From: an uncultured Gammaproteobacteria bacterium
GTDB taxonomy: Bacteria > Patescibacteriota > Microgenomatia > Woykebacterales > RBG-16-39-9b
DNA: 64,000 nucleotides
Assembly: GCA_964349395.1 (NCBI GenBank)
Contig: CAYGGA010000001.1
Span: 811-64,810 of the forward strand
Direction of reading: 5' to 3'
The position numbers were made by a program, and so were the translations under genes. Shown here piece after piece: positions 1,245 to 37,299 of the stretch (position 1 is the first letter of the stretch; the number at the start of each line of letters is the position of its first letter). Below the pieces are notes generated by a model that ran no database searches, was not told the DNA's origin, and was given only the letters and a program-made list of their open reading frames with translations.

Positions 1245-1576
1245 CAAACTACAATCACAAACCAAGAAGAGAAGTAAACTTACCAAAAATATTGAAGTTT
1301 AACCATCTGACCTTAAAAGGTGTAGTGGTAATTTTAGTGGTTCTATCGTTAATACAACTTTATATTTCCAACAATTTTGTCACTGATGGCGAGAAAATTA
1401 AGAAAGCTATCACTGAGGCGGAGGTTTTAGAAGAAGAAAACTCCAACCTTATCAATCAAATCCAACAACTCAGCTCTTTTTCTTACATTGAGAAACAAGC
1501 ATACAGCGCTGGTTTCTCCAAAATTGAAAAAATAGAATATTTGGACAAAACCACGATTATTGCTAGTAATGACTAA
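1241..1576 (+). CDS. FtsL-like small cell-division protein (one TM segment plus coiled coil)
   Basis: 111 aa; hydrophobic segment VVVILVVLSLIQLYI followed by heptad-like EAEVLEEENSNLINQIQQL. Canonical ftsL position between rsmH and ftsI. Confidence 0.45.
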   Translation: MTNYNHKPRREVNLPKILKFNHLTLKGVVVILVVLSLIQLYISNNFVTDGEKIKKAITEAEVLEEENSNLINQIQQLSSFSYIEKQAYSAGFSKIEKIEYLDKTTIIASND

Positions 1577-3320: not shown

Positions 3321-3438
3321 AAACTTCGTCCACTTCGGCGCTACGCTAATGAAGAAAAACGTTGCTTACTTCCGCGGAGCTACGCTCTTTATAGGTTTCT
3401 TGCTTGGTTCCAGGTTCAATTTGTGGTAAAATTCACGC

Positions 3439-4707: not shown

Positions 4708-5978
4708 AAAAGATTCATTTGATGGGAATTGGTGGTAGTGGTGCCTCCGCAGCAGCAGCGATTGCTCAGGCCCATGGGTACGGTGTATCAGGGTGCGATT
4801 TAGACCCCAAAAGTATTTACTTGGACGAGCTAAAAAATATTAAGATTTTTTATGACCACTCCTCTGCTCATTTGCGGGGTGCAGATTTGCTAATCCTTTC
4901 CCCAGCTATAGAGAGTCTAGATAAAGATAACCCTGAAGTAACAACAGCTCGAGAAAGTGGTATCCCAATCATGACTTGGCAAGAGTTTGTCGGAACACAG
5001 TTAATGAAAAACCAAAAGGTAATTGCGGTAACTGGGACTCATGGGAAAACCACCACTACCACAATGATAAGTTTGATTTTGGAAAAAGCCGGTCTGGATC
5101 CTACGGTCATTGTAGGTGCTCCAGTAAGGGAGTGGCAGAAAAACTACCGGGTGGGTAGTGGGAATATATTTGTAATTGAAGCTGATGAATATGGAGATAA
5201 TTTTCTTAACTATCCCGCTGATATTGCGGTCGTTACCAATATGGAGATGGACCATCCTGAGTATTACCGAGATTTTGATCATCTGAAAGCTAGTTTCCAA
5301 AAGTTTGTTTTGAATATGAAGGAAAAATCCACTTTATTTACTACTGACAGTCTAGATCTAACCAACCATCAAGGGGAAACCATTAAAATCACACCGATGA
5401 AGTTTGAGCTCCAAGTTTTAGGTAATTTTAATCAGGTAAATGCTACTTTTGCGTACCTTGTCACGAAATATTTAGGAGTAGATGAGGATAAGATTCTTGA
5501 GACTCTTCGTAATTTTCCGGGAGCAGGTAGAAGGCTTGAACTGATTGGGCAGAAGGGTAGTATCAAAGTCTATGATGATTATGGTCACCATCCCACCGAG
5601 ATTACCACTACTACCCAAGCAGTGAGGGAAAAATATCCAGAAAGTGAAATTTGGCTCATCTATCAGCCCCACATGTACACCCGGACCAAGTATCTATTCA
5701 AAGATTTTGTCAACGCTCTGAGAAATTGCCCGGTAGATCAAGTAATTTTGACAGAGATTTGGCAGTCGCGTGAGAAAAATGACTATAGCGTAACTAGCCA
5801 GCAATTAGTCGATGCAATTGCTAAATCTAGTGTGCGTAAAATGTCGAAATACGTTGATATAGCAATATATATGCACTCTAGAATGAAAGCCGATAGCATC
5901 GCCTTATTTATGGGTGCTGGGGATATTTACCTAGCAAGCAGAGAATTATTAAAAGAGTTGAAAGGTAAAAGTGACTAA
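4704..5978 (+). CDS. murC: UDP-N-acetylmuramate--L-alanine ligase (MurC)
   Basis: N-terminal HLMGIGGSGASAAA Rossmann motif typical of MurC; P-loop VTGTHGKTTTT; DDYGHHP motif. Confidence 0.85.
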   Translation: MKKIHLMGIGGSGASAAAAIAQAHGYGVSGCDLDPKSIYLDELKNIKIFYDHSSAHLRGADLLILSPAIESLDKDNPEVTTARESGIPIMTWQEFVGTQLMKNQKVIAVTGTHGKTTTTTMISLILEKAGLDPTVIVGAPVREWQKNYRVGSGNIFVIEADEYGDNFLNYPADIAVVTNMEMDHPEYYRDFDHLKASFQKFVLNMKEKSTLFTTDSLDLTNHQGETIKITPMKFELQVLGNFNQVNATFAYLVTKYLGVDEDKILETLRNFPGAGRRLELIGQKGSIKVYDDYGHHPTEITTTTQAVREKYPESEIWLIYQPHMYTRTKYLFKDFVNALRNCPVDQVILTEIWQSREKNDYSVTSQQLVDAIAKSSVRKMSKYVDIAIYMHSRMKADSIALFMGAGDIYLASRELLKELKGKSD

Positions 5979-6876
5979 AGAAGAAAAGTTCGTTAATAAA
6001 TTAGGCCCGGGCAAAGTACTTTTGAATGAAAAGTTGGCCAAATATACTTATATGAAGGTTGGGGGCCCGGCCGATTTATTAGTATTAGCCAGTTCTTCAC
6101 ATGAACTTATTGAAGCTGTTAGTGTGGCTCAGAGTCTTGGAATTGGTGTGACGATTCTGGGCAACAGCGCCAACGTCTTGGTCGCAGACAAAGGGATAAG
6201 AGGACTCACTATTTTGAATAATTCCAAAAATTACAAATTTTTACCCCACGATTATCTCGAAGCAGATAGCGGGGTGAGTGTAGTGGAACTTATCAACCAA
6301 GCCAGCAAACGAAAATTGACCGGGTTTGAAAGAATGATGAAAGTACCGGCGACTGTGGGTGGGGCGATTTTTATGAATGCTGGGGACACAAATAAAGGCG
6401 AGTTTTTTGGTGATTTAGTGCGCAGTGTCCGCGTCTTAACCCCTCTGGGGCAAATAAAGAATATCCCACAAGAAGATTGCGGTTTTAGCTATCGCACTAG
6501 CCGTTTTCAAACTAGTGGAGAGGTGATTCTAAGCGCCGTTCTGCAGCTTAGGAGCGTCGCCAAAGAAGACATTGAGGAAAAAGTTCGCGATATACTGGTG
6601 CGCAAGGTCAACCAACCCGCAGGCCCTTCAGTTGGGTCAACCTTTAGAAATCCAGAAGGACACTTTGCGGGAGAACTTTTGGAGAAGGCTGGGGTAAAAG
6701 GAATTGTCTTGGGTGGGGCTAAAGTGAGCGAGAAACACGCAAACTTTATTCTAAATCTTGGGAATGCCAGCGCCAGTAATATACGTGACCTAATTATGTT
6801 AATGAAAAGAAAAGTTAAAGAAACTAGCCGCGTTGAGTTGGAAGAGGAAGTTCGCTATGTGGGAGAGTGGGACTAG
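5971..6876 (+). CDS. murB: UDP-N-acetylenolpyruvoylglucosamine reductase (MurB)
   Basis: FAD-binding type MurB N-terminus (YTYMKVGGPADLL) and a C-terminal MurB domain. Confidence 0.85.
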   Translation: MTKEEKFVNKLGPGKVLLNEKLAKYTYMKVGGPADLLVLASSSHELIEAVSVAQSLGIGVTILGNSANVLVADKGIRGLTILNNSKNYKFLPHDYLEADSGVSVVELINQASKRKLTGFERMMKVPATVGGAIFMNAGDTNKGEFFGDLVRSVRVLTPLGQIKNIPQEDCGFSYRTSRFQTSGEVILSAVLQLRSVAKEDIEEKVRDILVRKVNQPAGPSVGSTFRNPEGHFAGELLEKAGVKGIVLGGAKVSEKHANFILNLGNASASNIRDLIMLMKRKVKETSRVELEEEVRYVGEWD

Positions 6877-8186
6877 TGAGTCGGCTTAAAATTCAAGGAG
6901 GGCACCCACTTAGGGGGGAAATATCTGTTTTAGGAGCCAAAAATGTTGGTTTTAAACTGATGATTGCGGCTCTTTTAGGTAGTGGAACTTCTGTAATCCA
7001 TAATGTTCCTCAAGTAGCTGATGTTTATTTAGTCAGAGATATTATTGAAGCTTTGGGTGGTGAGGTAACTATCGCGGGGCATACTGTCACGATCAATCCA
7101 ACCGGCATAAAGCACAACTCAATTCCAATGAGACTTGGGGAAAAAGCCAGAGCGAGTAGTATGTTGATTCCGATTTTACTACATTATTTTGGTGAGGGCG
7201 TCGTCCCCTATCCTGGAGGAGACAAAATTGGTAGGCGACCTATTGACCGACACTTAAAAGGTCTCGAAAGATTGGGGGCGGTTTTTCAGCTAGAAGACCA
7301 TCAATTGCGTGCCAAAGGCAAACTCCATGGCAGCACTTTTAAATTCAATAAAATCACTCACACTGGGACTGAAACTTTGATTTTGGGAGCAGTAGTAGCA
7401 ACTGGAGAAACTTTTCTGGAAAACTGTGCTTTAGAACCAGAAGTAGATGATTTAATTCATTTCTTGAGCAAGATGGGGGCAAAAATTGAGAGACAGGGAG
7501 GGGTGATTCATGTTTATGGGGCAGTTGAACTCTACGGTGCGGAATACACGGTTATGCCAGATCGAAATGAAGTAGTGACCTTTGCTTGTATGGCCCTGGC
7601 TACTCGTGGGGATGTGACCATCCAACATATAAACAATGATCACATCGAAGCTTTTTTGGACCGCTTGGATAAAATTGGTGCCTCTTACGATCAGTCTGCG
7701 GATAGTTTGCGAGTTTACTGGGAGAGGCCCCTTTCGGCAACGACAGTCATTACCCGCCCTCATCCTGGCTTTATGACTGATTGGCAACCAATCTGGACAG
7801 CGCTGATGACTCAAGCTGAGGGTCAGAGTGTCATTCATGAGACAGTATTTGAGCATCGGTTCCACTATGTTCCTCTGCTAAATAGTCTTGGAGCTAGAAT
7901 TGAAATTTTTAACCACAGCGTCCCAAATCCAGAAGAATTCTATAATTTCAACTTGTCTGATGACAAAGAGGAATATTTTCATGCGGCTCGTGTTTTTGGA
8001 CCTACCAAATTCAAAGGTGGGGAGGTTTCAGTCCCGGATATTCGTGCTGGTGCTACTTTGACCTTAGCCGCATTGGCGGCTGAGGCAGGTACCATTTTGA
8101 CAGATATTGATCATATTGAAAGAGGGTATGAGAAGCTTGAAGATAGACTAAAAGGTTTAGGAGCTAATATTACCAAGGATGAATAA
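6867..8186 (+). CDS. murA: UDP-N-acetylglucosamine 1-carboxyvinyltransferase (MurA)
   Basis: EPSP-synthase-like fold; N-terminus LKIQGGHPLRGEISVLGAKN typical of MurA. GTG start overlapping the murB stop. Confidence 0.85.
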   Translation: MGLVSRLKIQGGHPLRGEISVLGAKNVGFKLMIAALLGSGTSVIHNVPQVADVYLVRDIIEALGGEVTIAGHTVTINPTGIKHNSIPMRLGEKARASSMLIPILLHYFGEGVVPYPGGDKIGRRPIDRHLKGLERLGAVFQLEDHQLRAKGKLHGSTFKFNKITHTGTETLILGAVVATGETFLENCALEPEVDDLIHFLSKMGAKIERQGGVIHVYGAVELYGAEYTVMPDRNEVVTFACMALATRGDVTIQHINNDHIEAFLDRLDKIGASYDQSADSLRVYWERPLSATTVITRPHPGFMTDWQPIWTALMTQAEGQSVIHETVFEHRFHYVPLLNSLGARIEIFNHSVPNPEEFYNFNLSDDKEEYFHAARVFGPTKFKGGEVSVPDIRAGATLTLAALAAEAGTILTDIDHIERGYEKLEDRLKGLGANITKDE

Positions 8187-9453
8187 TCTTAAGAGATCCT
8201 TGTATTTTCCAGTAGCCTTTTATTTCCGGTTCTTTGCGATGATAATGATGTGGCGCTGGAAGCCCAGAATCATTGTAGTCACTGGGTCAAGTGGTAAGAC
8301 AACGCTTCTGAATCTGATTGCCTCTCAACTGGGTAATGATGCTAAGTATTCCCACCACGCCAATAGCAATTTTGGTATCCCATTCAATATTTTGGGGTTA
8401 GACAGAAAAACTATGCTCCTTTCGGAGTGGCCCCGTCTTTTTCTAAGAGCACCGCTGCACGCTTTTAAAAAACCTCCACAGGAAAAATTGTACATTGTAG
8501 AAGCAGATTGTGATCGTCCAGGTGAAGATAAATTTATTAGCAGTTTAAGTAGTTTTTTGAAACCAGAGGTGACTCTGTGGGTGAGCACTGGTCGGACTCA
8601 TACCATGAATTTCGATCACCTAGTCAGAGAGGGAAAATTCCCGACAGTAGAAGAAGCAATTGCCTATGAATTTGGGCATTTTGTCAAACGTACGACTAAA
8701 CTTGTGATTGTAAATGGTGACTCAGAACTTATTAGAACTCAGTTAAGAAATACCAAGGCTTCCGTAATCCCGATTTATGCAAAAGATCTGACAAGTTACC
8801 AAGTAAGTGAAAATGGTACCCAGTTTAAGTTTGGTAATCGGATTGTGAAATTGAAAGCTTTACTACCGCCAAGTGCTTACTACTCCATTAGAATGACTTT
8901 GGAGCTTTTAAACTACTTAGGAATAGAGGCAAGAAGTTTTGAGAATTTTGCGTCACCCCCGGGTCGAAGTTCGGTTTTCGATGGGATTAAAAATACCACT
9001 TTGATTGATAGTAGTTATAATGCCAATCTTGGATCGATGACTACTATTTTGGAAATGTATACCCTATTTCCCAAAAAACCAAAATGGGCAGTGATCGGTG
9101 ATATGCTGGAGTTAGGAGCAGAAGAGGAAATCGAGCATGAAAAGTTGGCCAAATTAATAGCTGCGGTCGATTTAGAACGCTTAGTTTTAATGGGAACAAG
9201 AGTTGGTCAGTACACATATCCGGTGCTAAAAGAGCTAGTGGGGGACAAATTTCCAATTGTAGCTTTTGACAACCCAACCCAGACTTTAGCCTATCTTAAG
9301 CAAGAAATAAAAGGTGGGGAAACCATTTTGTTTAAAGGAGCCAGATTTTTGGAAGGGGTTATTGAAAATTTATTGAAAGATGCGAGTGAGAAAAAAGATT
9401 TAGCGAGGCGTGAGGAAATTTGGGAGAAAAGGCGTAAACAATGGGGACTGTAA
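8179..9453 (+). CDS. murF: UDP-N-acetylmuramoyl-tripeptide--D-alanyl-D-alanine ligase (MurF, lacking an N-terminal domain)
   Basis: P-loop VVTGSSGKTT; MurF-type IDSSYNAN and GDMLELG motifs. Confidence 0.75.
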   Translation: MNNLKRSLYFPVAFYFRFFAMIMMWRWKPRIIVVTGSSGKTTLLNLIASQLGNDAKYSHHANSNFGIPFNILGLDRKTMLLSEWPRLFLRAPLHAFKKPPQEKLYIVEADCDRPGEDKFISSLSSFLKPEVTLWVSTGRTHTMNFDHLVREGKFPTVEEAIAYEFGHFVKRTTKLVIVNGDSELIRTQLRNTKASVIPIYAKDLTSYQVSENGTQFKFGNRIVKLKALLPPSAYYSIRMTLELLNYLGIEARSFENFASPPGRSSVFDGIKNTTLIDSSYNANLGSMTTILEMYTLFPKKPKWAVIGDMLELGAEEEIEHEKLAKLIAAVDLERLVLMGTRVGQYTYPVLKELVGDKFPIVAFDNPTQTLAYLKQEIKGGETILFKGARFLEGVIENLLKDASEKKDLARREEIWEKRRKQWGL

Positions 9454-10136
9454 ATAAGATTTACTTGCTGCATGGTTGGTCAGACTCCACCCAAAAGTGG
9501 GGGACCTTAGTTAATTTACTAGAAAAAAGAGGGTTTAAAGTGCACTTGCCCAGAATTCCAGGATTAACTGAACCGTTAAAAGAAGAGTGGAAGCTAGAGG
9601 ACTATGTCAGTTGGTTAAAAAACCTCTTAGAAAATGAGAATAAAGTAATTTTAGTGGGACACTCCAATGGGGGAAGAATTAGCTTAGCCTTCAGTTTAAA
9701 ATATCCAGAAAAAGTAGAGCATCTAGTTTTGATTGATAGTGCTGGAGTCTATCATAATCATCGGGGTTTGCGTTTCAAGAGATTTTTGTTTAAAACCTTA
9801 GCTTTTGCTGGGAAAAAAATCACTAGATCAGAAAGATTGAGAAATGTACTTTACAAATTAGCTCGGGAAAAAGATTATCAACAAGCTGATCCAATTTTGA
9901 GAAAAACACTTACCAATTTGATTAAAATTGACTTAGTTCCACACCTTACCAACCTGAAGGTGGCAACTTTAATTATTTGGGGAGAAAATGATAAAGCCAC
10001 TCCATTGCAAGATGGACTTTTGATGCACCAAAAAATAACCAATTCAGTCCTTAAAATTATCCCGGAAGCTAGGCACTCACCCCAATTTACTCATCCAGAT
10101 ACAGTGGCAAAGCTAATTGCGGAAGGAGTAAAATAG
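9441..10136 (+). CDS. Alpha/beta-fold hydrolase
   Basis: GHSNGG nucleophile elbow (GxSxG); size and pattern of the alpha/beta hydrolase family. Embedded in the dcw cluster. Confidence 0.65.
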   Translation: MGTVNKIYLLHGWSDSTQKWGTLVNLLEKRGFKVHLPRIPGLTEPLKEEWKLEDYVSWLKNLLENENKVILVGHSNGGRISLAFSLKYPEKVEHLVLIDSAGVYHNHRGLRFKRFLFKTLAFAGKKITRSERLRNVLYKLAREKDYQQADPILRKTLTNLIKIDLVPHLTNLKVATLIIWGENDKATPLQDGLLMHQKITNSVLKIIPEARHSPQFTHPDTVAKLIAEGVK

Positions 10137-11338
10137 TGGCAGTTTTTAATTCACTTGGGTCAAACTACACTTTCATCTTTGCCTTAAAAGCTCTTTTTGG
10201 ATTGGGTAAAAAAGAAGATCTAGAAATTCTAAAAAAACTATTGGGTGAAAAATATGGTGGTGAAGTAGTCTTAACTTATAAGGGTCGAGAGGGTTTAAAT
10301 TTAGCGTTGCAAACATGCAATCTTAAAGAAAGTAGCCAAGTTGGGATAAATGGGTTTACCTGCTACGTAGTAGAAAAGGCTGTTTCTGATTTAAGCTTAC
10401 AACTAGCCTATATTGATATTGACTCCAAGACCTTAAACTTCACGGCCGAAGGGTTGAGAAAGGAAGTAGACAGAAATCCCAATCTAAAGGTAGTGGTGAT
10501 CCAAAACACACTAGGGTACCCAAGTGAAGGGGAGGAGATTGCCAAGATTTGCCGTGAGAAAAACTTGGTTTTGATTGAGGATTTAGCTCATTGTGTTGGG
10601 ACTACCTATAAAAATGGCCACGAAGCTGGAACTTTAGGAGATCTAGTTATCCTTTCTTTTAGTCAGGACAAGATGGTGGACGGAGGTAGTGGTGGGGCAG
10701 TAGTTATCCGTAACCAAAACTTTAGTTTCCCTCAGAATCTCGACTGGAAAGAAGTAGGGTATTACCAGCAATTACTAGACAGACTTTATCCAATTCTTAC
10801 CTTTATTATCAGAAAAACTTATCCCTGGAAAATTGGCGAGGTTTTGCACTGGTTACTTAAAAAATCAGCAATTTTGACTTCCCCCATTAACCCAAAATCA
10901 CCGATCGTATTACACAGTCTCCCTTCTTGGTGCGCTTCTTTAGTGATTGAGGCATCGAAAAATTTGCCCGCAAATGCAAAACATAGGCAAAAAATCGCTC
11001 AAATTTACAGCCAGACTTTGGATAAAGAGTTGGTTTTTGAAGATCTTACCCCACTTGTGGAAAACAGCACTAATCTACGTTTTCCAATCAATGTCAAAAA
11101 CCGTCTTGACCTCATTCTCTTTTTAAAAAATGCAGGAATATATGTGTCTGATATCTGGTATGATAGCCCGATTGGGCCAAAGAAATACCAAGATTTCAGT
11201 ATTTATCCTGTAGGCACTTGTCCCCAAGCGGAGAGTGTTTCACAGACAATCCTAAACTTGCCTACGCATCAAGATATAACCGAAAATGAGGCAAGAAAAA
11301 TTAGTGGGTTAGTAAACCAATGGTTAAAACAGAACTAA
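10136..11338 (+). CDS. DegT/DnrJ/EryC1/StrS-family PLP-dependent aminotransferase
   Basis: Aminotransferase class V-like fold; SFSQDK motif (PLP lysine) after DLAHCVG. GTG start overlapping the upstream stop. Confidence 0.6.
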   Translation: MAVFNSLGSNYTFIFALKALFGLGKKEDLEILKKLLGEKYGGEVVLTYKGREGLNLALQTCNLKESSQVGINGFTCYVVEKAVSDLSLQLAYIDIDSKTLNFTAEGLRKEVDRNPNLKVVVIQNTLGYPSEGEEIAKICREKNLVLIEDLAHCVGTTYKNGHEAGTLGDLVILSFSQDKMVDGGSGGAVVIRNQNFSFPQNLDWKEVGYYQQLLDRLYPILTFIIRKTYPWKIGEVLHWLLKKSAILTSPINPKSPIVLHSLPSWCASLVIEASKNLPANAKHRQKIAQIYSQTLDKELVFEDLTPLVENSTNLRFPINVKNRLDLILFLKNAGIYVSDIWYDSPIGPKKYQDFSIYPVGTCPQAESVSQTILNLPTHQDITENEARKISGLVNQWLKQN

Positions 11339-12345
11339 AACCAGTAACTAGGAAAAAAGAGTGGGAAGATTTTCTCAAGACCCGCAGCGAAGCGAACTTT
11401 TTGCATTCCTGGAATTGGGGAGAATTTCATCTTCTTTTGGGCCACTCTGTTTATCGAGTAGGTTTTTACCAAGACGAAAAATTAGTTGGTGTCTTGCTGG
11501 CTACAATGGAGACTGCACGCCGCGGTCGGTATCTAACTGTGCCAGGTGGGCCGATTATTGATTTTAAAGACAGAGGTCAAGTCAATTTATTTGCGAGCGA
11601 AATTAAAAGGCTGGCTAAAGCGGAAGGGTGTAGTTTTGTCAGGGTCAGATCCCAACTAATACAATCGGAAGACACACAAAAACTTTTTGCAAATTTAGGT
11701 TTCAGAAAAGCACCGATGCATCTACATGCCGAGCTCACCAACCAACTTGATATCACCAAGAGCGAGGAAGAACTTTTAATGGGGATGCGTAAAACTACTC
11801 GTTATGAAATAAAAAAAGCTCTGAATGAGAATATTAAAATCACCACTAGTTCAAGTAGTGATGAGATAAAGAATTTTTACACCTTGCAGCTAGATACAGC
11901 GCGGAGGCAAAAATTTGTACCCTTCTCCTTTAATTATTTGAAGGAACAATTTGAAGTTTTCTCTCAAGATAATCAGGTACTATTATATAAGGCAGAAAAA
12001 GACGGTATTCTTTTGGCCAATGCTTTTATTATCTTTTACGGACAGGAAGCAGTTTATCATTATGGAGCTTCTACCCCTGAAGGAAGGAATTTCCCCGGTG
12101 CTCATCTAATTCAATGGGAGGCTATCAGGGAAGCTAAGAGACGAGGACTGAAAAGATACAATTTCTGGGGAGTAGCTCCAGAAGACGTGCAAAACCATCG
12201 GTTCGCAGGTCTGTCTATTTTCAAAAAGGGGTTTGGAGGAGAGGACTTTCAGTATTTACCAGCCCAGGATTTAGTAATCAACTCGCCTTTGTATTTAGTT
12301 AATTTTGTGATTGAGACACTGAGGCGGCATCTTCGCCACGTCTAG
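11320..12345 (+). CDS. FemAB-family peptidoglycan aminoacyl (peptide-bridge) transferase
   Basis: FLHSWNWGEF motif and GNAT-like duplicated fold typical of the FemX/FemAB (lipid II aminoacyltransferase) family. Confidence 0.75.
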   Translation: MVKTELKPVTRKKEWEDFLKTRSEANFLHSWNWGEFHLLLGHSVYRVGFYQDEKLVGVLLATMETARRGRYLTVPGGPIIDFKDRGQVNLFASEIKRLAKAEGCSFVRVRSQLIQSEDTQKLFANLGFRKAPMHLHAELTNQLDITKSEEELLMGMRKTTRYEIKKALNENIKITTSSSSDEIKNFYTLQLDTARRQKFVPFSFNYLKEQFEVFSQDNQVLLYKAEKDGILLANAFIIFYGQEAVYHYGASTPEGRNFPGAHLIQWEAIREAKRRGLKRYNFWGVAPEDVQNHRFAGLSIFKKGFGGEDFQYLPAQDLVINSPLYLVNFVIETLRRHLRHV

Positions 12346-12405
12346 GGCTAGGCTCTGCGAACCGCTCCTTTGCGACTAGGAGGGTCTAGTTGTATACTTA
12401 TTATT

Positions 12406-13419
12406 ATGAGTAAGCTCCTTGGCATCCTGCTTTTGTCTTTTCTGACGACTAGTATTTTGGCGGTGCCCTTCATTAACCTTCTTTATAAGTTGAAATTCCA
12501 AAGGCAAAAAGAACTGGGCCAAAAAAATATCTTTGGGGAAGTTACTAGTATTGTGAATAAACTGCATTCCTGGAAAGTTGGGACCCCAAATGCCGGTGGT
12601 ATTCTGATAATCTTAGTCTCCATTGCCTTTAGTGCTATTTTTTATGCCCTAACAAAGTTTGAGATAAATTGGACGGCAAAAATTTTGTACTTTACTATGT
12701 TTAGTTTTGGTCTTTTGGGTCTTTATGATGACGCTAGAAAATTCTTTGGACTTAAAGTTACAGGAGTCTGGGGATTGCGGATTCGCTACAAGTTTAGTCT
12801 GCAATGGCTTTTGGCATTAGTGATTGGGCTAGCCCTAAATATCCAAATGGGTTTACATACCGTAGCTCTGCCCCTGGGTGGAGAAATTGATTTAGGCGCT
12901 TTTTATCCTTTGTTTGCTGCCTTGGTGATTGTCGCGACCGTGAATGCGGTAAACCTAACTGACGGACTAGATGGTTTGGCCAATGGTCTACTTTTGATTG
13001 CCTTATCTGCTTTTTGGTGGTTGTCTTCTCTCGCCGATATGGGTGATATTCAAGTTTTTATCGCTGTTATTCTAGGATCGCTTTTAGCTTTTCATTACTT
13101 TAATATCTATCCGGCTCGCGTTTGGATGGGTGATACCGGAGCCTTGGCTTTAGGGGGCATGCTTGCCGTTATCAGCTTGATGTTAAATTTAGTTTATGTC
13201 TTACCTTTTATTGGGGCGGTTTTTATGATCGAAACTATCTCCACGCTGATTCAATGGACCTCAAAAGCAACCAGAGGGGAAAAAGTTTTCCTAGCTACAC
13301 CCATACACCATCATTTTGAGGCTAAGGGATGGGATGAAACCAAAGTAACCATGAGGTTTTGGTTAGCCGGAGCGGTGTCTGCTTTTGTGGGTCTTTTCAT
13401 CGCTTTGCTTGGGAAATAG
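12406..13419 (+). CDS. mraY: Phospho-N-acetylmuramoyl-pentapeptide transferase (MraY)
   Basis: NLTDGLDGLA and D-D motifs; multi-TM. ATG at 12406 gives an N-terminus aligning with Bacillus-type MraY; the ORF track starts earlier at a TTG (12370). Confidence 0.85.
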   Translation: MSKLLGILLLSFLTTSILAVPFINLLYKLKFQRQKELGQKNIFGEVTSIVNKLHSWKVGTPNAGGILIILVSIAFSAIFYALTKFEINWTAKILYFTMFSFGLLGLYDDARKFFGLKVTGVWGLRIRYKFSLQWLLALVIGLALNIQMGLHTVALPLGGEIDLGAFYPLFAALVIVATVNAVNLTDGLDGLANGLLLIALSAFWWLSSLADMGDIQVFIAVILGSLLAFHYFNIYPARVWMGDTGALALGGMLAVISLMLNLVYVLPFIGAVFMIETISTLIQWTSKATRGEKVFLATPIHHHFEAKGWDETKVTMRFWLAGAVSAFVGLFIALLGK

Positions 13420-14788
13420 CTTCAACTCAGGTATAATAGTGGCTATGAAGCAACCAGTCAGATTCTGTTTTGAGGGTTATAAACTTCAAACTTCAACCAA
13501 TCAAATTAGTTTTCACTACTCAGTCTATTTTTCTGATAACACGCAGACTCTTTTTACTGAGAAATTAACTTTCCCAGAAAATGCTAGTTGGGACAAAATT
13601 CCAAATAATATACTAAAGTCCTCCTTAGAAAGCTTGCATTTGATTTTGGGGATTAGTTATTGGAAAGCTTATTGTCCTAAAGAATTAATACTAAAAAATT
13701 TAGTTTTAAATAAAAAACAAGCTGAGTTTTGGAATACTGTATATACCAAAGGGCTAGGGGAATTTTTCTACCGCAACAGTATTGATTTTCGTGGGTTAGT
13801 TCAGTTTCCACATGCACAGGTTGAAAACAAAGCTGGTTCCTTTTCTCGTCAAAACCGTAGTTTATTACCATTTGGAGGTGGTAAAGATTCAATTGTCGCT
13901 TTAGAGCTACTTAAAAAAGCTGGCAAAGACTTTACTCTCTTTACACTTGGGACCTCACCAGTCCAAGAGGAAGTAAGCCAAAAGATTGGTCAAAAACCAC
14001 TGGTAGTGCAACGAGAACTAGACTCACAACTTTTTGACCTAAATTCGAAGGGTGAGGTCTACAATGGCCATGTCCCTATATCAGCTGTGTATCATTTAGT
14101 AGGATCAGTAGTTGCTTTACTTTTTGACTATAAATACATTGTCTTCCCCAATGAGCTTAGCGCTAGTTATGGAAATGTAAACTATTTAGGAGTTGAGATT
14201 AATCACCAATGGAGTAAATCTTTTGAATTTGAAAAGCTGGTTCAAGATTATATTCACCAGTTTATCACACCTGATATCATGCCTTTTTCTCTGCTGCGAC
14301 CACTTCATGAGATAAAAATTGTGGAACTTTTTAGCCATATGAGTGAGTATTTTTCAACCTTTTCAAGTTGTAACCGTAATTTTACTCAGACCAAAGGTAT
14401 AAGTCAGAAAAGATGGTGCGGGGAGTGTCCGAAGTGTGCTTTTGTTTTTCTGCTTTTGGCTGCCTTTCTACCTAAAGAAAAAGTGCTGAGCATTTTCTCC
14501 AAAAATCTTCTCAGTGATCCAAAATTAACACTGGCTTACAAAGAACTTTTAGGACTAAAAGACGTTAAACCCTGGGATTGTGTGGGCACTCCAGAAGAAG
14601 TGCAGTTAGCTTTTTACCTCGCTCATCAAAAGGGAGAGTTTGAGAAAGACACGGTGATGAAGATGTTTGTTGATGAGGTTTTACCTACTCTTGAAAACCC
14701 AGAAAAGCTGAAAGAAAAACTGTTAATTGTCACTCACGAGGGGTCTGTCCCAGAAGAGTTTAAGATTGTTATTGAGGAGCTAAAATGA
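13385..14788 (+). CDS. PP-loop (adenine-nucleotide alpha-hydrolase) superfamily ATPase of unknown function with a C-terminal CxxCxxC
   Basis: PFGGGKDSIVALE matches the SGGxDS PP-loop; C-terminal CGECPKCAF. Alternative ATG start at 13445. Inserted between mraY and murD, with an ATGA overlap to murD. Confidence 0.4.
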   Translation: MWVFSSLCLGNSFNSGIIVAMKQPVRFCFEGYKLQTSTNQISFHYSVYFSDNTQTLFTEKLTFPENASWDKIPNNILKSSLESLHLILGISYWKAYCPKELILKNLVLNKKQAEFWNTVYTKGLGEFFYRNSIDFRGLVQFPHAQVENKAGSFSRQNRSLLPFGGGKDSIVALELLKKAGKDFTLFTLGTSPVQEEVSQKIGQKPLVVQRELDSQLFDLNSKGEVYNGHVPISAVYHLVGSVVALLFDYKYIVFPNELSASYGNVNYLGVEINHQWSKSFEFEKLVQDYIHQFITPDIMPFSLLRPLHEIKIVELFSHMSEYFSTFSSCNRNFTQTKGISQKRWCGECPKCAFVFLLLAAFLPKEKVLSIFSKNLLSDPKLTLAYKELLGLKDVKPWDCVGTPEEVQLAFYLAHQKGEFEKDTVMKMFVDEVLPTLENPEKLKEKLLIVTHEGSVPEEFKIVIEELK

Positions 14789-15993
14789 CTCTTGAAAAAC
14801 TAAAGGGTAAAAAAATCTTGGTAGTCGGTTTGGGAAGTGAGGGCAAGGCAACTTTTGACTATCTAAAAACAAATTTACCCAATACAGTGGTCGAAACTAC
14901 CGATCAAAAAGATGGGCCAAACTATTTGGACAAACAAAAGGAATTTGACTTGGCGGTTCGTTCTCCGGGGGTCAAGAGGGAGCTACTTACGATTCCATCC
15001 ACCACCGCTACTAATATCTTTTTTGCCAATGTAACCTCTCCTATTATTGGAGTTACGGGGTCCAAAGGAAAAAGCACGACCGCCTCTTTAATTGATCATC
15101 TCCTAAAAACGAGCGGTAAAAAATCTATTCTAGCAGGCAATATTGGCCTCCCGATGTTGGAAGTCGTCGAAAGTGAAACGGACTTTTTTGTCGTGGAGTT
15201 ATCTAGTTTTCAGCTGGAAGATATCAATTACTCACCACACCTCAGTGTTTTCACTAGTATTTTTCCTGAGCATATGGATCATCATGGTAGTTTTGAAACT
15301 TACTTTGACGCGAAGAAAAGAATAGTAAAGTTTAGCACCAGTGAAGATTATTTCGTCTTCAACTCCCGTTATAGGGAATTGGTTAGTTTAAGTAGAGAAA
15401 CCAAAGCACAAGCAGTCCCTTTTGAAGAAACCTTGCCTCCTGGGGTTGAGAAAATACCCCTTATTGGTCAGCATAATTTAGAAAATCTGCTCGGTGCCAT
15501 CACTGTCTCCCATTTACTAAAAATCGAAGATAAGTTTATCAAGAGTGGGATTGAGACTTTTAAACCTTTACCCCACCGATTAGAAAAAGTTGGCACTTTT
15601 CGGGGAATCACATTTTACGATGATGCTATTTCCACCACTCCTCAGTCCGCAATTGCTGCCTTGGATTCTTTGGCGGATGTCAGTACGATTTTGCTAGGCG
15701 GGGAGGATCGCGGTTATGATTTTAGGGCGTTGATAAGCAAATTAGTGGAAAAGAAAGTTGCTAATATTGTGCTTTTCCCCAATAGTGGCAGCAAAATCAA
15801 AAGTTTACTACCCAAAAGCCAGTTTAAAATTTTGGAAACAAGCAGTATGGAGGAGGCAGTGAGATTTGGGTATACCAATTCTCATGTAGGGTCAGTTTGT
15901 CTTCTGTCTACAGCTTCTCCAAGCTACAGTCTGTGGAAGAATTTTGAAGAAAAAGGGGACTTATTTCAAGATAGTATAAAAAAGTTTGCCTAA
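14785..15993 (+). CDS. murD: UDP-N-acetylmuramoylalanine--glutamate ligase (MurD-type)
   Basis: N-terminal Rossmann KKILVVGLGSEGKA; P-loop GVTGSKGKSTT. Short (402 aa). MurD versus MurD2 cannot be distinguished by eye. Confidence 0.8.
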   Translation: MTLEKLKGKKILVVGLGSEGKATFDYLKTNLPNTVVETTDQKDGPNYLDKQKEFDLAVRSPGVKRELLTIPSTTATNIFFANVTSPIIGVTGSKGKSTTASLIDHLLKTSGKKSILAGNIGLPMLEVVESETDFFVVELSSFQLEDINYSPHLSVFTSIFPEHMDHHGSFETYFDAKKRIVKFSTSEDYFVFNSRYRELVSLSRETKAQAVPFEETLPPGVEKIPLIGQHNLENLLGAITVSHLLKIEDKFIKSGIETFKPLPHRLEKVGTFRGITFYDDAISTTPQSAIAALDSLADVSTILLGGEDRGYDFRALISKLVEKKVANIVLFPNSGSKIKSLLPKSQFKILETSSMEEAVRFGYTNSHVGSVCLLSTASPSYSLWKNFEEKGDLFQDSIKKFA

Positions 15994-16007
15994 AATCCCT
16001 ACCTGCC

Positions 16008-17129
16008 ATGAAAACAAAACATCGAAAAATTCCTAATTTCTCTTTTACTTCTTTTAGGTCCATGGACTTGGGTTTAGTTTTAGTCACCCTGGGACTAACT
16101 ATCTTTGGATTGGTGATGGTTTACAACGCCAGTGCTTTTTCTGCTTTTAAAGATTTTAACGATAAATATTACTTTTTAAAGCACCAAGGAGTTGGGGCCT
16201 TAGTAGGATTATTTGCTCTGCTAGTTACCTCTCGTGTTAATTATCACTTTTGGGAAAAACTGGCTTTTCCTGCGATGCTGATCTCCCTGGTTCTACTGGT
16301 GAGTGTTTTTAGTCCTTTAGGTGTAAAGGTTTATGGTGCGCAGCGGTGGGTGGACTTTGGTTTTTTCACTTTGCAGCCAGCCGAGATAGCCAAGCTAAGT
16401 TATATTTTGTATCTATCTGCTTGGCTCTCCAAAAAAGTTAAGGCGCTTCCTTTCCTAGCGATCACGGGAGTAATTTTGGGTATTGTCCTGCTGCAGAGAG
16501 ATTTGGGAACGGCGACTATCATCGGTCTGACGGGAATGAGTATTTTTTTCATTGCCGGGGCACCTTGGTGGCAATTTTTAGGACTTGGTTTTTTAGGAGC
16601 TGTGGCGGGGTCAATTTTGATCTTAACTTCCAACTATCGCAAAGCCAGGCTGTTGAGTTTTCTAAATAGTTCTAATGATCAACTGGGGACGAGCTACCAT
16701 ATCAATCAAGTCTTAATTGCTTTGGGGAGTGGTGGGCTTTTTGGGGTGGGGTTGGGGCAATCTCGGCAAAAATATGGTTATATACCTGAGGTTACCACTG
16801 ATTCTATTTTTGCAGTGGTAGCCAATGAGCTGGGTTTTATTGGTGCTAGTGGTTTAATTTTGGCTTTGGCATACCTAATCTGGCGGGGGATACAGACAGC
16901 CAAGGGAGCAGGCGACCAGTTTGGTTTCTTGCTAGCAGTGGGGATTACTAGCTGGCTTGGTTTTCAGGCCATTATCAATATTGGTTCCATGGTGGCTCTT
17001 TTCCCTCTCACTGGAGTGCCTTTGCCCTTGATTTCCTACGGGGGAAGCTCGTTGGTGATGGTGATGACTGGGATTGGGATCTTGCTGAACATCTCTAGCT
17101 GGCAAGTGGTAAACAAAACCGGCCGATAA
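16008..17129 (+). CDS. ftsW: SEDS-family peptidoglycan glycosyltransferase FtsW
   Basis: Roughly 10-TM FtsW/RodA-family pattern with conserved C-terminal PLPLISYGGSS. Position between murD and murG. Confidence 0.75.
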   Translation: MKTKHRKIPNFSFTSFRSMDLGLVLVTLGLTIFGLVMVYNASAFSAFKDFNDKYYFLKHQGVGALVGLFALLVTSRVNYHFWEKLAFPAMLISLVLLVSVFSPLGVKVYGAQRWVDFGFFTLQPAEIAKLSYILYLSAWLSKKVKALPFLAITGVILGIVLLQRDLGTATIIGLTGMSIFFIAGAPWWQFLGLGFLGAVAGSILILTSNYRKARLLSFLNSSNDQLGTSYHINQVLIALGSGGLFGVGLGQSRQKYGYIPEVTTDSIFAVVANELGFIGASGLILALAYLIWRGIQTAKGAGDQFGFLLAVGITSWLGFQAIINIGSMVALFPLTGVPLPLISYGGSSLVMVMTGIGILLNISSWQVVNKTGR

Positions 17130-17148
17130 TCATGATATACTACGGAGT

Positions 17149-18258
17149 ATGCGTGTTGTAATTACGGGTGGGCATTTAACCCCAGCGCTGGCAGTTATTG
17201 ACGAAATAGTCAAAGATCACCAAGTTATTTTTATTGGTCGCAGAACTGCTAGTGAGGGAGACAAATCCAAAAGTGCAGAAGCAATTGTTATTCCCCAGCT
17301 AAAAATTCCCTTTTTCTCCATTGAGGCGGGGAGATTGCAAAGAAAATTAACTCCTTACACTCTCTTTGCGCTACTAAAAATTCCCCTTGGTTTTTTCCAG
17401 GCTTTTTTGATTCTGATTAAAAATGATCCCGATGTCGTAATCTCTTTTGGTGGTTATGTGGCTTTACCAGTAGTGTTAGCTGCTTGGCTGCAGCGTATTC
17501 CTGTTATCACTCATGAGCAGACAACGGAAACTGGACTGGCAAATAAAATCATTGCCCGTTTTGCTCAAAAAGTCGCGGTTGCTTGGGAGACTTCCGCCGC
17601 TAATTTCCCTAAGAAAAAAGTAATCATCACTGGTAATCCTATCCGGGCGCAAGTTTTAAATATTAAGAGAGAAAAAGTAAGTAAGCCAGTTATATATATA
17701 ACTGGCGGCAACCAAGGGGCCCATGTTATCAATAACGCCGCCGAAGAGATAGTGGAAAATCTCGCTTCCCTAGGCGAAGTTTATCATCAAACTGGAGGAT
17801 CAGAAGTCTATCATGATTTTGAAAGACTTAGTGAGAAGCTTGCTACCTTACCAAAAGCAACTGCCGAAAATTATCATTTAGCCAAGTGGTATTCGACCGA
17901 GGAGTTGGCGGAGATTCTAGCGAAAGCAACTTTAGTGATTGGTCGAAGTGGCGCCAATACTATTACTGAACTAGCATATCTAGGGATTCCTGCTCTATTG
18001 ATTCCGATTCCTTGGGTCACCCATGATGAACAAACCAAAAACGCGCAGATTTTGTCTTCTCGGGGAGCGGGGCTTATCTTAGCTCAAAAAGAGTTAACTG
18101 GCAAAAGATTACTAAGTACCGTGGAAATTATGTTAAAAGATATAACTGCGTTTCAAAAAGGAGCCCAAGAAGTTAAAAAACTTATCAAAACTGATAGCGC
18201 TTCTAAACTCGCCCAAGAAGCTCTAAAACTTGCCCACCATGGAGAAAAAACTCTTTAG
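17149..18258 (+). CDS. murG: Undecaprenyldiphospho-muramoylpentapeptide beta-N-acetylglucosaminyltransferase (MurG)
   Basis: GT28 N-terminus ITGGHLTPALAV and C-terminal GRSGANTITE motif. Confidence 0.85.
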   Translation: MRVVITGGHLTPALAVIDEIVKDHQVIFIGRRTASEGDKSKSAEAIVIPQLKIPFFSIEAGRLQRKLTPYTLFALLKIPLGFFQAFLILIKNDPDVVISFGGYVALPVVLAAWLQRIPVITHEQTTETGLANKIIARFAQKVAVAWETSAANFPKKKVIITGNPIRAQVLNIKREKVSKPVIYITGGNQGAHVINNAAEEIVENLASLGEVYHQTGGSEVYHDFERLSEKLATLPKATAENYHLAKWYSTEELAEILAKATLVIGRSGANTITELAYLGIPALLIPIPWVTHDEQTKNAQILSSRGAGLILAQKELTGKRLLSTVEIMLKDITAFQKGAQEVKKLIKTDSASKLAQEALKLAHHGEKTL

Positions 18259-18706
18259 TCTACAACGAAAAAACCGCACCAAGGATCTGCTCTTCAATCT
18301 AGTAGTCGCAGTTCTTCTGCTTTTTGTTTTGATTAGTACGATCTCTCCCTTGCTTGGTAGCATCGGGGTAAAGATTCTACATGGTCTGGAAAATGTCAAA
18401 AATAATCTAAGCCCCCAAAAGATGGTAGCCGTAAATCCTCTGGCTCCTTCTTTTAAAGATCAAGTTAAAGAAAAAGTTGATCCCGCAATTTTTGAAATTA
18501 AAGATTTTAAAGAGATTGATGCATATTCTCTGGAAGCCACTTCATTTCAGGGGGTAGTAGCGGTTTTTGGAACCCATCAGAGTTTAGATGATCAAGTTTC
18601 CTCTTTACAAACTCTCCTTGCAAAAAGTAGAATAGAAGCTAAACAGGTTAAAAAAATAGATTTAAGATTTAACAAAACTATAGTTGAGTACGGAGATCAA
18701 AAGTAG
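18230..18706 (+). CDS. Small membrane protein in the ftsQ position (possible minimal FtsQ/DivIB-like)
   Basis: 158 aa; one TM (LLFNLVVAVLLLFVLISTI) plus a periplasmic segment. Located between murG and ftsA. Confidence 0.3.
   Translation: MPTMEKKLFSLQRKNRTKDLLFNLVVAVLLLFVLISTISPLLGSIGVKILHGLENVKNNLSPQKMVAVNPLAPSFKDQVKEKVDPAIFEIKDFKEIDAYSLEATSFQGVVAVFGTHQSLDDQVSSLQTLLAKSRIEAKQVKKIDLRFNKTIVEYGDQK
18634..18678 (+). repeat. 45-bp direct repeat (first copy, within the 3' end of the ftsQ-like ORF); second copy at 18735-18779
   Basis: agaagctaaacaggttaaaaaaatagatttaagatttaacaaaac occurs twice, 101 bp apart, with weaker similarity extending about 15 bp further. Confidence 0.75.
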
Positions 18707-18869
18707 GAATTTGATTCGCTTCTGCGCTTTGCTAAGAAGCTAAACAGGTTAAAAAAATAGATTTAAGATTTAACAAAACCGTAGTGGAATAGGAAGCTAA
18801 ATAATAAGTAAGATGAGGCCTGCCTAGTTAAGAAAGAACTAATTCTTTCGAAACAGCAGTGAACTTTTT

Positions 18870-20168
18870 TTGGCAAAAGAACGAACTATTAGTGCTATTG
18901 ATGTTGGAAGTTCCAAAGTTGTTACTTTAATTGCTACTGGTAGCCGGGAAAGCCAGCTCACAGTGGTGGGTGTTTCCACAGTGCCTTCTCGTGGGCTACG
19001 CAAGGGGCAGGTTGTAGATATTGATGAAGCAGTCCAGGCGATTGCCCAAGGAATCGAGGCTGCTGAAAGAATGGCTGGGTACTCGATTACTTCCAGCTTT
19101 GTCAGTGTCGGTGGTAGTCATATTTCCTCAATAAATTCTCGTGGGGTAGTCGCAGTAGCTGGTAATGATAATGAAATTACCAGTGAAGATGTCCGTCGTG
19201 TGACAGAAGCTGCCCGAGCTATATCTATACCTTCCTCCAGGGAGATAATCCATGTTATTCCTCGTGATTTTGTAGTTGATTCTCAAGAAGGTATCAAAGA
19301 TCCAGTCGGGATGACTGGAGTAAGGCTTGAGGTAGAGACTCATATTATCACGGGTGCGGCCACTTCGATGCGAAATTTGGCAAAATGTATTCAGCAGGTT
19401 GGTATTGATGTTGAAGCTTTGGTTTTTTCTGGGCTCGCGGCCTCCGAAGGAACTTTGACAGAAACAGAAAAAGAACTTGGAGTTGCTTTGATTGACATCG
19501 GTGGTGGCACGACAGATGTGAGTTTATTTGTTGACGGTTCTATTGCCCATTCAGTCGTAATTCCGATTGGTGGTAAAAATATTACCAATGATCTGGCGAT
19601 CGGGCTGCGTGGGTCTTTGGAAAGTGCCGAAAAAATCAAATTAGAGCTCTCTCGAGCGGACAAAAAAGAGACTCGTATTGAAGAGGAAAGCTTGGAAGAC
19701 CGCAAGGAAAAAAGAGAAAAAGAGCGAAAAGAAGACATCTTGGATGTTTCCAAATTGGAGTTAGCTGAAGATTTGGGTGTCTTATCTAAAAAAACTTTAG
19801 TGGATGGCATCATCAAGCCTCGTTTGACCGAGATTTTTACGCTCGTTGGGATGGAGATAAAAAGAAGTGGTTACTCTGGGTTACTGCCAGCAGGAATTGT
19901 GGTTACCGGAGGTGCTTCAGAGACAGTAGGTCTAAGCCAAGTAGGTAAAGAAGTCCTAAGGATGCCCGTAAGAGTAGCTACCCCCACTGGAGTAAGCGGG
20001 TTGATTGAAGAAGTTACCACTCCAGCTTATTCGGGAGCTATTGGCTTGCTGCTCTACGGTGATCGCTTTGCTCCATCCAGTAATAGTTCTTTGCCTGGTA
20101 TGCCCTCTCTCAAGTTCAAACCCAATTTTGGTCGTGTGGTCAATTGGTTAAAATCATTCCTGCCTTGA
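18870..20168 (+). CDS. ftsA: Cell division protein FtsA
   Basis: Actin-like ATPase motifs ISAIDVGSSKV and DIGGGTTD. TTG start. Carries a K/E-rich insertion. Confidence 0.85.
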   Translation: MAKERTISAIDVGSSKVVTLIATGSRESQLTVVGVSTVPSRGLRKGQVVDIDEAVQAIAQGIEAAERMAGYSITSSFVSVGGSHISSINSRGVVAVAGNDNEITSEDVRRVTEAARAISIPSSREIIHVIPRDFVVDSQEGIKDPVGMTGVRLEVETHIITGAATSMRNLAKCIQQVGIDVEALVFSGLAASEGTLTETEKELGVALIDIGGGTTDVSLFVDGSIAHSVVIPIGGKNITNDLAIGLRGSLESAEKIKLELSRADKKETRIEEESLEDRKEKREKERKEDILDVSKLELAEDLGVLSKKTLVDGIIKPRLTEIFTLVGMEIKRSGYSGLLPAGIVVTGGASETVGLSQVGKEVLRMPVRVATPTGVSGLIEEVTTPAYSGAIGLLLYGDRFAPSSNSSLPGMPSLKFKPNFGRVVNWLKSFLP

Positions 20169-20238: not shown

Positions 20239-21303
20239 ATGCTTATTAAACCTGAGATCAATCGATTTGCAAAGATAAAAGTAATTGGTATTGGGGGCGC
20301 TGGTTGTAACGCTCTAAATTCCATGATTTCCCAACAACAAATCCAAGGGGTGGACTTTGTGGCGGTCAATTCTGACGCCCAAGCTCTGCTTACCTGTAAA
20401 GCCGCGACCAAAGTCCAGATTGGTGATCAGCTCACCAAAGGGCTTGGTAGTGGTGGGCAGCCGGAGATAGGCCGTCAAGCTGCCGAAGAGAGTATGGATA
20501 GACTCCAGGAGATGGTAGAGGGAGCGGACATGATTTTTATTACTGCTGGTATGGGTGGTGGTACTGGAACTGGTGCATCTCCAATCATCGCGGAGATTGC
20601 CCGTGATTCTGGCGCCCTCACCGTCGCCGTAGTCACTAAGCCATTCAATTTTGAAGGAGCCAAAAGACGAGTAGCCTCAGAAGAAGGTATTGAAAATCTC
20701 AAAGATAAAGTCGATACCATGATTGTGATCCCCAACCAGAGACTCTTAGATGTCGTTGACAAAAAAATGAGCCTGCTGGAAGCTTTCAAAGTGGCGGATA
20801 ATGTTTTGGGCCAAGGTGTTCAAGGAATATCTGATATCATTGTTCTTCCTGGTTTGATAAATGTCGACTTTGCCGATGTCCGAACGATTATGAATAATGC
20901 TGGTAGTGCATTGATGGGTATTGGTTTTGGAACAGGTGAAAATAGGGCTGCAGCGGCGGCACGAAGTGCGATTGCTTCCCCTCTGCTCGAAGTTTCTATC
21001 GATGGTGCCAAAGGAGTTTTGTTCAATGTTACTGGTGGAAATGATCTGAGTATGTTTGAAGTCGATGAAGCAGCCAAAATCATCTCGTCAGCTGCCGATG
21101 CTGATGCCAATATTATCTTTGGTGCCACTATTGATGAGAGCATGGTCGATCAGGTAAAAATCACCGTCATTGCCACTGGTTTTAATGAAGATGCCCTTCG
21201 TAGTGCTGAAGCTCGAGATGTGGTCCAGTCTTTCCCTGAAGTATCTGACAATTCTGAAGAGTCTGATGAGTTTGACATCCCAGCTTTTATGCGTCAACGC
21301 TAA
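20239..21303 (+). CDS. ftsZ: Cell division GTPase FtsZ
   Basis: GIGGAGCNA motif and tubulin signature GGGTGTG. Confidence 0.9.
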
Positions 21304-37276: not shown

Positions 37277-37299
37277 ACAGCTCGTTTTAAAGTAGTAAA

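Follow-up and report, generated by a model that had tools for sequence, protein, structure and literature searches.

What does an extra gene between mraY and murD do in the division and cell wall (dcw) cluster of an ultra-small member of the candidate phyla radiation (CPR/Patescibacteria)? The question is raised by a 64,000-nt stretch of contig CAYGGA010000001.1 (here called the window), in which an open reading frame (ORF) of 447 aa separates these two genes (Table 1). In Escherichia coli the gene order is murF-mraY-murD-ftsW, with no gene between mraY and murD, as had been assumed for canonical clusters in the original prediction, which was made from the raw sequence. That prediction had noted an ORF of about 450 aa at this position and had read it as a PP-loop ATPase acting on peptidoglycan precursors, with a MurL-like epimerase as the lead idea and an amidating enzyme as the alternative. 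The ORF is indeed there, and we consider it highly probable that it encodes MurL and that the next gene encodes a MurD2-type ligase, the two together supplying peptidoglycan with its D-glutamate by an alternative route. The pair is one more example of the MurD2/MurL pathway, a known two-enzyme system that was reportedly described in 2017.

A profile search against MurL, one of the checks that the original prediction had proposed, returned a full-length match. The NCBIfam model NF041275 (MurL_Xanthmoales, UDP-N-acetyl-alpha-D-muramoyl-L-alanyl-L-glutamate epimerase) matched the ORF with E=6.1e-119 and 397 bits, aligning residues 6-442 with model positions 9-442 of 447. As a control, we used the MurL of Xanthomonas sacchari, which is annotated as such by the Prokaryotic Genome Annotation Pipeline (PGAP) and was retrieved from the 508-kb replicon NZ_CP010410.1 by tblastn of a plasmid collection; it scored 836 bits on this model, whose equivalog cutoff is 700. 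In public assemblies, an identical copy of the window protein has precomputed Pfam matches to PF26299 (MurL_N) and PF26298 (MurL_epimerase_C). Our local copy of Pfam-A did not include these two models and therefore gave no match to the ORF. The family already has models in both NCBIfam and Pfam.

The window protein and X. sacchari MurL are 37% identical (273 bits, residues 65-440). To place this similarity in the wider family, we aligned 83 sequences, namely, the window protein, relatives from 80 species genomes, X. sacchari MurL, and one putative paralogue from Pseudonocardia. Some 30 positions never vary across the 83 sequences, X. sacchari MurL included; among them are G145, G146, S149, C309, C325, C328, and C331. 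K147, D148, and C379 occur in 82 of the sequences. The near-invariant motifs are [G/S]GGKDS, G208-H209-x-P211, N253-H254-Q255-x-x-K258, S308-C309-N310, W324-C325-x-x-C328-x-K330-C331, and K375-P376-x-x-C379-x-G381. With a full-length match to the MurL model, both Pfam MurL domains, and the core motifs of Xanthomonas MurL, the ORF is, judged by its sequence, a clear member of the MurL family. Its occurrence is far beyond chance: when 1.84 billion cluster representatives (50% identity) were searched exhaustively with HMMER, 2752 clusters reached E<=1e-3, and 1235 reached E<=1e-30.

Compared with the MurL of Xanthomonas oryzae (EC 5.1.1.23; XOO_1319), the window protein is of similar length (447 versus 451 aa) and has the same two domains. 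The motifs GGGKDS, GHxP, NHQxxK, SCN, WCxxCxKC, and KPxxCxG are common to the window and X. sacchari proteins, and, as in Xanthomonas, the window murL lies immediately upstream of a MurD-type gene and overlaps it. The setting is different, in that the window gene sits inside a dcw cluster, whereas the Xanthomonas gene adjoins lysC/lysA-type genes, and in many CPR genomes MurL is fused to MurD. The published distribution of MurL covers Gamma- and Alphaproteobacteria and rare actinobacteria, with CPR/Patescibacteria not among them (PMC8788868; PMC5808125).

Mutagenesis of X. oryzae MurD2 identified Glu197 and Arg358, the equivalents of Asp182 and Lys348 in E. coli MurD, as switches for L-Glu specificity, and double mutation at these sites turned the enzyme to D-Glu specificity (PMC8788868). 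In addition, Pro433 and Phe435 of X. oryzae MurD2 replace Ala414 and Leu416 of E. coli MurD, and the E. coli K319T variant gained the use of L-Glu (PMC8788868). We used these residues as the criterion for ligase type, taking a single bona fide MurD2 and a single full-length canonical MurD as references, in an alignment of E. coli MurD, X. sacchari MurD2, the window protein, and 77 MurD-type genes adjoining murL. At D182/K319/K348/A414/L416, E. coli MurD reads D/K/K/A/L, X. sacchari MurD2 E/I/R/P/F, and the window protein E/I/R/P/Y. The alignment register is valid, since the X. sacchari residues equal those published for X. oryzae. MurDs of solved structure (four sequences from five aligned PDB entries, two of which are the same protein) read D or T, K, K or R, A, and L, F, or W at these sites; along with E. 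coli MurD, all four keep K319 and A414, and none has Glu at 182.

Much of this signature recurs in the CPR partners of MurL. The first specificity site is Glu in 61 and Asp in 15 of 76 partners; where the other sites could be aligned, Lys is never found at 319 (0/73), Arg is always found at 348 (73/73), Pro occupies the 414 site in 71 of 73, and the last site is aromatic or His in all 73. Like MurD2 (EC 6.3.2.53), the window ligase is a three-domain MurD-type protein encoded directly 3' of murL. It has Glu, Arg, and Pro as at X. oryzae Glu197, Arg358, and Pro433, shares Ile at the K319 site with X. sacchari, and differs in having Tyr rather than Phe at the Phe435 site, both being aromatic. The suggestion in the original prediction that the neighbor is a MurD2-type L-Glu ligase is supported by these specificity residues. 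Its short length had been taken as a sign of MurD2, which it is not, given that X. sacchari MurD2 has 478 aa (versus 402 aa here); the window MurD is also shorter than E. coli MurD. The model TIGR01087 cannot separate MurD from MurD2, as X. sacchari MurD2 itself scores 298 bits on it, and PGAP labels the X. sacchari MurD2-type gene as a D-glutamate ligase.

We next consider how murL is arranged in relatives. Among species-representative genomes, at least 583 encode a MurL relative, and gene context was read in the best 80 loci (13 kb each). These best 80 relatives all belong to CPR/Patescibacteria by similarity, a few of them under implausible labels, and their lineages include Roizman-, Levy-, Woese-, Falkow-, Uhr-, Kerfeld-, Moran-, Taylor-, and Staskawiczbacteria, Peri-/Peregrinibacteria, Gracilibacteria, and Saccharibacteria. 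A MurD-type gene directly follows murL on the same strand in all 77 loci with downstream sequence. On the other side, mraY is directly upstream in only ~4 of the 80 relatives and within ~1 kb in ~7. The pair is followed by ftsW-murG in roughly a quarter of the loci; elsewhere murL-murD stands alone, away from dcw genes. The conserved unit is thus murL-murD and not mraY-ORF-murD, contrary to the fixed position within the operon that had been supposed.

In 30 of the 77 genomes, murL and murD form one continuous ORF, and in 17 they overlap by 4 nt. Fusion ORFs were confirmed in two loci (L044, 5980-8430, 816 aa; L071, 5980-8502, 840 aa), and the lineages bearing fusions include Saccharibacteria, Moranbacteria, Uhrbacteria, and Staskawiczbacteria. 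Among the best 150 cluster representatives, 17 are likewise MurL-MurD fusions (795-893 aa) with the same MurD signature. In X. sacchari, murL lies directly upstream of murD and overlaps it, according to the PGAP annotation. The recurrent fusion is strong evidence that MurL and MurD act consecutively.

Several observations on related loci and records were made along the way. The 508-kb X. sacchari "plasmid" NZ_CP010410.1 carries core genes, namely, murL, murD, a bifunctional aspartate kinase/diaminopimelate (DAP) decarboxylase gene, and ssb, and is probably a piece of the chromosome or a chromid. Three Pseudonocardia plasmids encode a MurL-like "hypothetical protein" with 28-30% identity to the window MurL; the homologue on plasmid pLS1-1 (4959-6368 in locus L092) scores 300 bits on the MurL model and keeps all core motifs, has no adjoining murD, and is possibly a paralogue that acts on another substrate. 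Metagenome-assembled genome records titled "uncultured Gammaproteobacteria," "Weeksellaceae," "Bacillota," and "Pseudomonadales" hold CPR-like murL-murD loci with 43-49% identity to the window MurL (L014, L018-L021, L026, L027, L031, L064, and L090), and these titles are probably taxonomic mislabels.

Published MurL uses one ATP, releases AMP, and works in the L-to-D direction only; its authors proposed adenylation of the alpha-carboxylate while stating that "MurL lacks known conserved domains" (PMC8788868; PMC5808125). The window protein carries both the PP-loop and the CGECPKC cluster pointed out in the original prediction, the loop reading GGGKDS, with Gly in place of the first Ser of SGGxDS (Ser in 6 of the 83 sequences). 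An AlphaFold2 model built from 60 homologues (predicted local distance difference test score [pLDDT], 95.5; predicted template modeling score [pTM], 0.93) has the Rossmann-like alpha/beta fold of the PP-loop superfamily. When this model was compared with the PDB by Foldseek, QueC ranked at the top (3bl5 and 2pg3; E ~2e-5, target-normalised TM score of 0.62), followed by QatC, TtuA, ThiI, and Cap9. At the sequence level, the family profile matched solely PP-loop enzymes among PDB sequences (TtuA, MnmA, TilS, and MJ0690), aligned on the GGGKDS loop, although these matches were weak (best E, 0.002); the same search with the single protein gave noise alone (Zmp1 at E 0.4). The QueC Pfam profile did not match the ORF, and an hhalign comparison of the family profile with E. 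coli QueC gave a probability of 3%, with the PP-loop alone aligned, so the relationship to QueC rests on structure and not on sequence. In the predicted structure, then, the MurL core is a QueC-like PP-loop ATP pyrophosphatase, a fold in keeping with the ATP-to-AMP stoichiometry reported for MurL and with the adenylation of a carboxylate that has been proposed for it.

MurL differs from QueC, Cap9, QatC, and the ArtA nitrile synthetase in several respects. Sequence likeness is negligible, MurL has two extra parts (an N-terminal domain, ~125 aa, and a C-terminal helical region, ~115 aa, the latter with an invariant Cys), and the outcome is epimerisation plus hydrolysis rather than amide or nitrile formation. 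The N-terminal domain possibly binds the UDP-MurNAc-peptide (MurNAc being N-acetylmuramic acid). Four invariant cysteines, spaced C-x15-C-x2-C-x2-C, are found in the C-terminal portion of the PP-loop core, where C309, C325, C328, and C331 may form a putative zinc site. This placement loosely resembles that of the zinc-binding cysteines of QueC. Outside the core, Cys379 is a candidate catalytic acid/base, and the catalytic base could be C379, H209, H254, or K258.

Taken together, these features suggest how the window MurL would work. It would adenylate the alpha-carboxylate of the terminal L-Glu through its QueC-like PP-loop domain (ATP to AMP plus pyrophosphate) at a presumed adenylation site, after which an enzyme base would exchange the activated C-alpha proton and thereby invert C-alpha. 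Inversion would be placed after ligation, at a cost of one ATP, and the 4-nt overlap here and the gene fusion in many relatives would keep both activities stoichiometric. This differs from MurI and canonical MurD, where the cofactor-independent MurI racemises free Glu before ligation; here, epimerisation is predicted to follow ligation and to consume ATP. The reaction, its ATP dependence, AMP formation, and one-way course from L to D are taken from the Xanthomonas and Micromonospora enzymes (PMC8788868; PMC5808125).

The amidation alternative holds that the PP-loop protein amidates a precursor carboxylate, yielding iso-glutamine or amidated DAP in the manner of AsnB1/LtsA or MurT/GatD, with no epimerisation. 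We regard it as very improbable. The ORF has no Asn_synthase or GATase match in Pfam (E<=0.1), in keeping with the earlier remark that it lacks an N-terminal glutamine-amidotransferase Cys, and the cluster encodes no glutaminase partner. AsnB/LtsA enzymes have an N-terminal Ntn glutaminase and an Asn_synthase domain, whereas the window ORF has neither, and its full-length similarity goes to MurL and not to amidotransferases. MurT, for its part, is of the Mur ligase type and not a PP-loop protein, and the window MurD reaches just 19.8 bits on the MurT model. Moreover, the L-Glu signature of the partner MurD makes sense only if an epimerase follows. The fold itself raises another thought, namely, that a QueC-like, tRNA-modifying, or defence-type PP-loop enzyme lies in the dcw cluster by accident, for which one could cite the top structural matches (QueC, Cap9, and QatC) and the fact that the Joint Genome Institute (JGI) calls two homologues (P0041 and P0062) "7-cyano-7-deazaguanine synthase." However, the ORF has no Pfam QueC or tRNA-modification match and scores only 3% against E. 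coli QueC in hhalign, and the alignment to tRNA-modifying enzymes (TilS, MnmA, and TtuA) is limited to ~40 residues around the PP-loop at E>=0.002. No THUMP, TilS, or other RNA-binding domains were found, PADLOC returned no match, and the strict linkage and fusion to MurD are hard to reconcile with accident. We therefore consider this explanation extremely improbable and take the JGI names to be a mis-annotation arising from distant PP-loop/QueC-like similarity. The view that the ORF serves the cell wall and not tRNA modification stands.

A subtler possibility is that the protein is a true MurL-family member that acts in CPR on another substrate or at another step (a different stem residue, a lipid-linked intermediate, or salvage), while MurD uses host-derived D-Glu. 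CPR are episymbionts with unusual walls, the window cluster has extra FemAB, DegT-like, and hydrolase genes, the Pseudonocardia pLS1-1 paralogue is unlinked to murD, and some partner ligases have Asp at the first specificity site. Nevertheless, every motif residue is common to the window protein and Xanthomonas MurL, the aligned partner MurDs never have Lys at K319 and always have Arg at K348, and fusion to MurD argues for consecutive steps. We judge a shifted substrate to be unlikely and keep the assignment of the pair to MurL and a MurD2-type ligase; in this sense, the inference first drawn from the raw sequence is supported as essentially correct.

Some observations do weigh against this assignment. 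The ORF's score of 397 bits falls below the NF041275 cutoff, which is tuned to Xanthomonadales, so the model does not certify orthology. Taken as a whole, the window MurD resembles X. sacchari MurD2 (26%, 130 bits) no more than it does E. coli MurD (28%, 134 bits), and its closest match is the MurD of Streptococcus agalactiae (199 bits). For this reason we limit our claim to a MurD2-like active site, as read from the aligned residues, and do not claim membership in the MurD2 clade. Asp replaces Glu at the first specificity site in 15 of the 76 CPR partners. The biochemistry of MurL comes from Xanthomonas, Micromonospora, and Salinispora enzymes (PMC8788868), all of them non-CPR, and by analogy we predict that CPR MurL and MurD are active. 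As for murI and dat, whose absence would favor the assignment, no Asp_Glu_race or Aminotran_4 protein was found among window ORFs of >=150 aa, a negative result that covers the 64-kb window.

How far the pathway serves CPR as a whole is a broader question. It is, in our estimate, an even bet that MurD2/MurL, often as one bifunctional fusion, is the main and possibly ancestral CPR route to D-Glu, with MurL a QueC-derived adenylating enzyme that has a zinc site and a cysteine base. Penalver et al. (2024) reportedly found an active MurI in Candidatus Saccharimonas aalborgensis; hence, not all CPR need rely on MurL, a point that also weighs against the assignment above.

The 5' part of the window is a long dcw/cell wall cluster in which all genes are co-directional (Table 1) and MurC, MurD, MurE, and MurF are each encoded once. 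The mechanical ORF of murL runs from a TTG (13385..14788, +; 467 aa), but the start falls at ATG 13445 according to the N termini of homologues and two independent gene calls, making TTG 13385 an unlikely start codon. The distance to mraY had been given as 26 nt, or a 35-nt overlap if the TTG were used; the overlap figure is right, whereas the spacer between the mraY stop (TAG, 13417-13419) and the ATG is 25 nt. The overlap of murL with the start of murD through ATGA is as originally described. Gene callers start mraY at ~12406, which gives 337 aa.

Table 1 Features of the dcw cluster and of murL in the window
Feature	Coordinates	Strand	Remarks
rsmH	369-1244
PBP (penicillin-binding protein)/ftsI	1560-3320
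murE	3439-4707		DAP-type; NF001126, 432 bits
murC	4704-5978
murB	5971-6876
murA	6867-8186
murF-like	8179-9453
alpha/beta hydrolase	9441-10136
DegT-like protein	10136-11338
FemAB-family protein	11320-12345
mraY (phospho-MurNAc-pentapeptide transferase)	12370-13419	+	TIGR00445, 204 bits (cutoff 192); PF00953
murL (ORF in question)	13445-14788	+	447 aa; NF041275 and Pfam MurL_N/MurL_epimerase_C
MurL N-terminal domain	13445-13819	+	~residues 1-125; three long beta-strands and helices
QueC-like PP-loop ATP-pyrophosphatase core (predicted)	13850-14440	+	~residues 136-332; includes SC309N and WC325xxC328xKC331
PP-loop motif PFGGGKDSIVALE	13868-13906	+	residues 142-154; predicted ATP/pyrophosphate-binding loop
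CGECPKC cysteine cluster	14417-14437	+	residues 325-331
Cys379 in KPxxCxG, C-terminal helical region	14579-14581	+	82/83 sequences, one alignment gap; present in X. sacchari MurL
ATGA overlap, murL stop/murD start	14785-14788	+	read from sequence; translational coupling
murD-type ligase, MurD2 (L-Glu-adding) signature	14785-15993	+	402 aa; TIGR01087, 277 bits (cutoff 212)
ftsW	16008-17129
murG	17149-18258
ftsQ-like ORF	18230-18706		no family match; named from position alone
ftsA	18870-20168
ftsZ	20239-21303

Other features of the window deserve mention. Between the murF-like gene and mraY (9441-12345) lie three genes not in the E. coli dcw cluster, encoding an alpha/beta hydrolase, a DegT/DnrJ/EryC1-type pyridoxal phosphate protein (whose family match is confined to residues 44-195), and a FemAB-family transferase. 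This trio may modify the stem peptide or precursor, and it is missing from a Roizmanbacteria locus (L003). The murF-like ligase reaches 130 bits on TIGR01143 (cutoff, 289), and the murE match begins at model position 64, so that most of the usual N-terminal domain is lacking. Farther downstream, a second FtsW/RodA-family gene lies outside the dcw cluster (28269-29402), and a surface-polysaccharide cluster (32046-38535) encodes a flippase, three glycosyltransferases, and two Wzy_C/O-antigen-ligase-like proteins. A promoter/terminator scan of positions 1-20000 gave counts at or below the shuffled expectation.

In the accessible literature, we found no report of the breadth of the MurD2/MurL pair across CPR or of frequent MurL-MurD fusions, and no explicit QueC-like PP-loop assignment for MurL; a search for literature joining MurL, MurD2, or glutamate racemase with CPR/Patescibacteria likewise gave nothing relevant. 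In databases, NCBI records label the CPR family proteins "hypothetical protein," while JGI names many CPR homologues as the epimerase. Our analysis thus assigns a function to a gene labelled "hypothetical protein" in CPR and suggests that the neighboring "MurD" is mis-described as a D-glutamate ligase. The PP-loop/QueC-like fold offers a structural rationale for how an enzyme described without known domains would turn ATP into AMP (PMC8788868; PMC5808125), and the natural fusions provide a handy bifunctional protein for structural and enzymatic study. A pathway held to be narrow now extends to a huge uncultured radiation, as gauged by the species genomes and the clusters at E<=1e-30 counted above. 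If it is this common, the published proposal to aim narrow-spectrum antibiotics at MurD2/MurL would need re-thinking. Were MurD2/MurL indeed the main CPR route, this would explain how many reduced genomes manage without glutamate racemase, and the pathway would be among the most widespread D-Glu routes in bacterial diversity rather than one limited, as it has been described, to a small number of genera among proteobacteria and actinobacteria.

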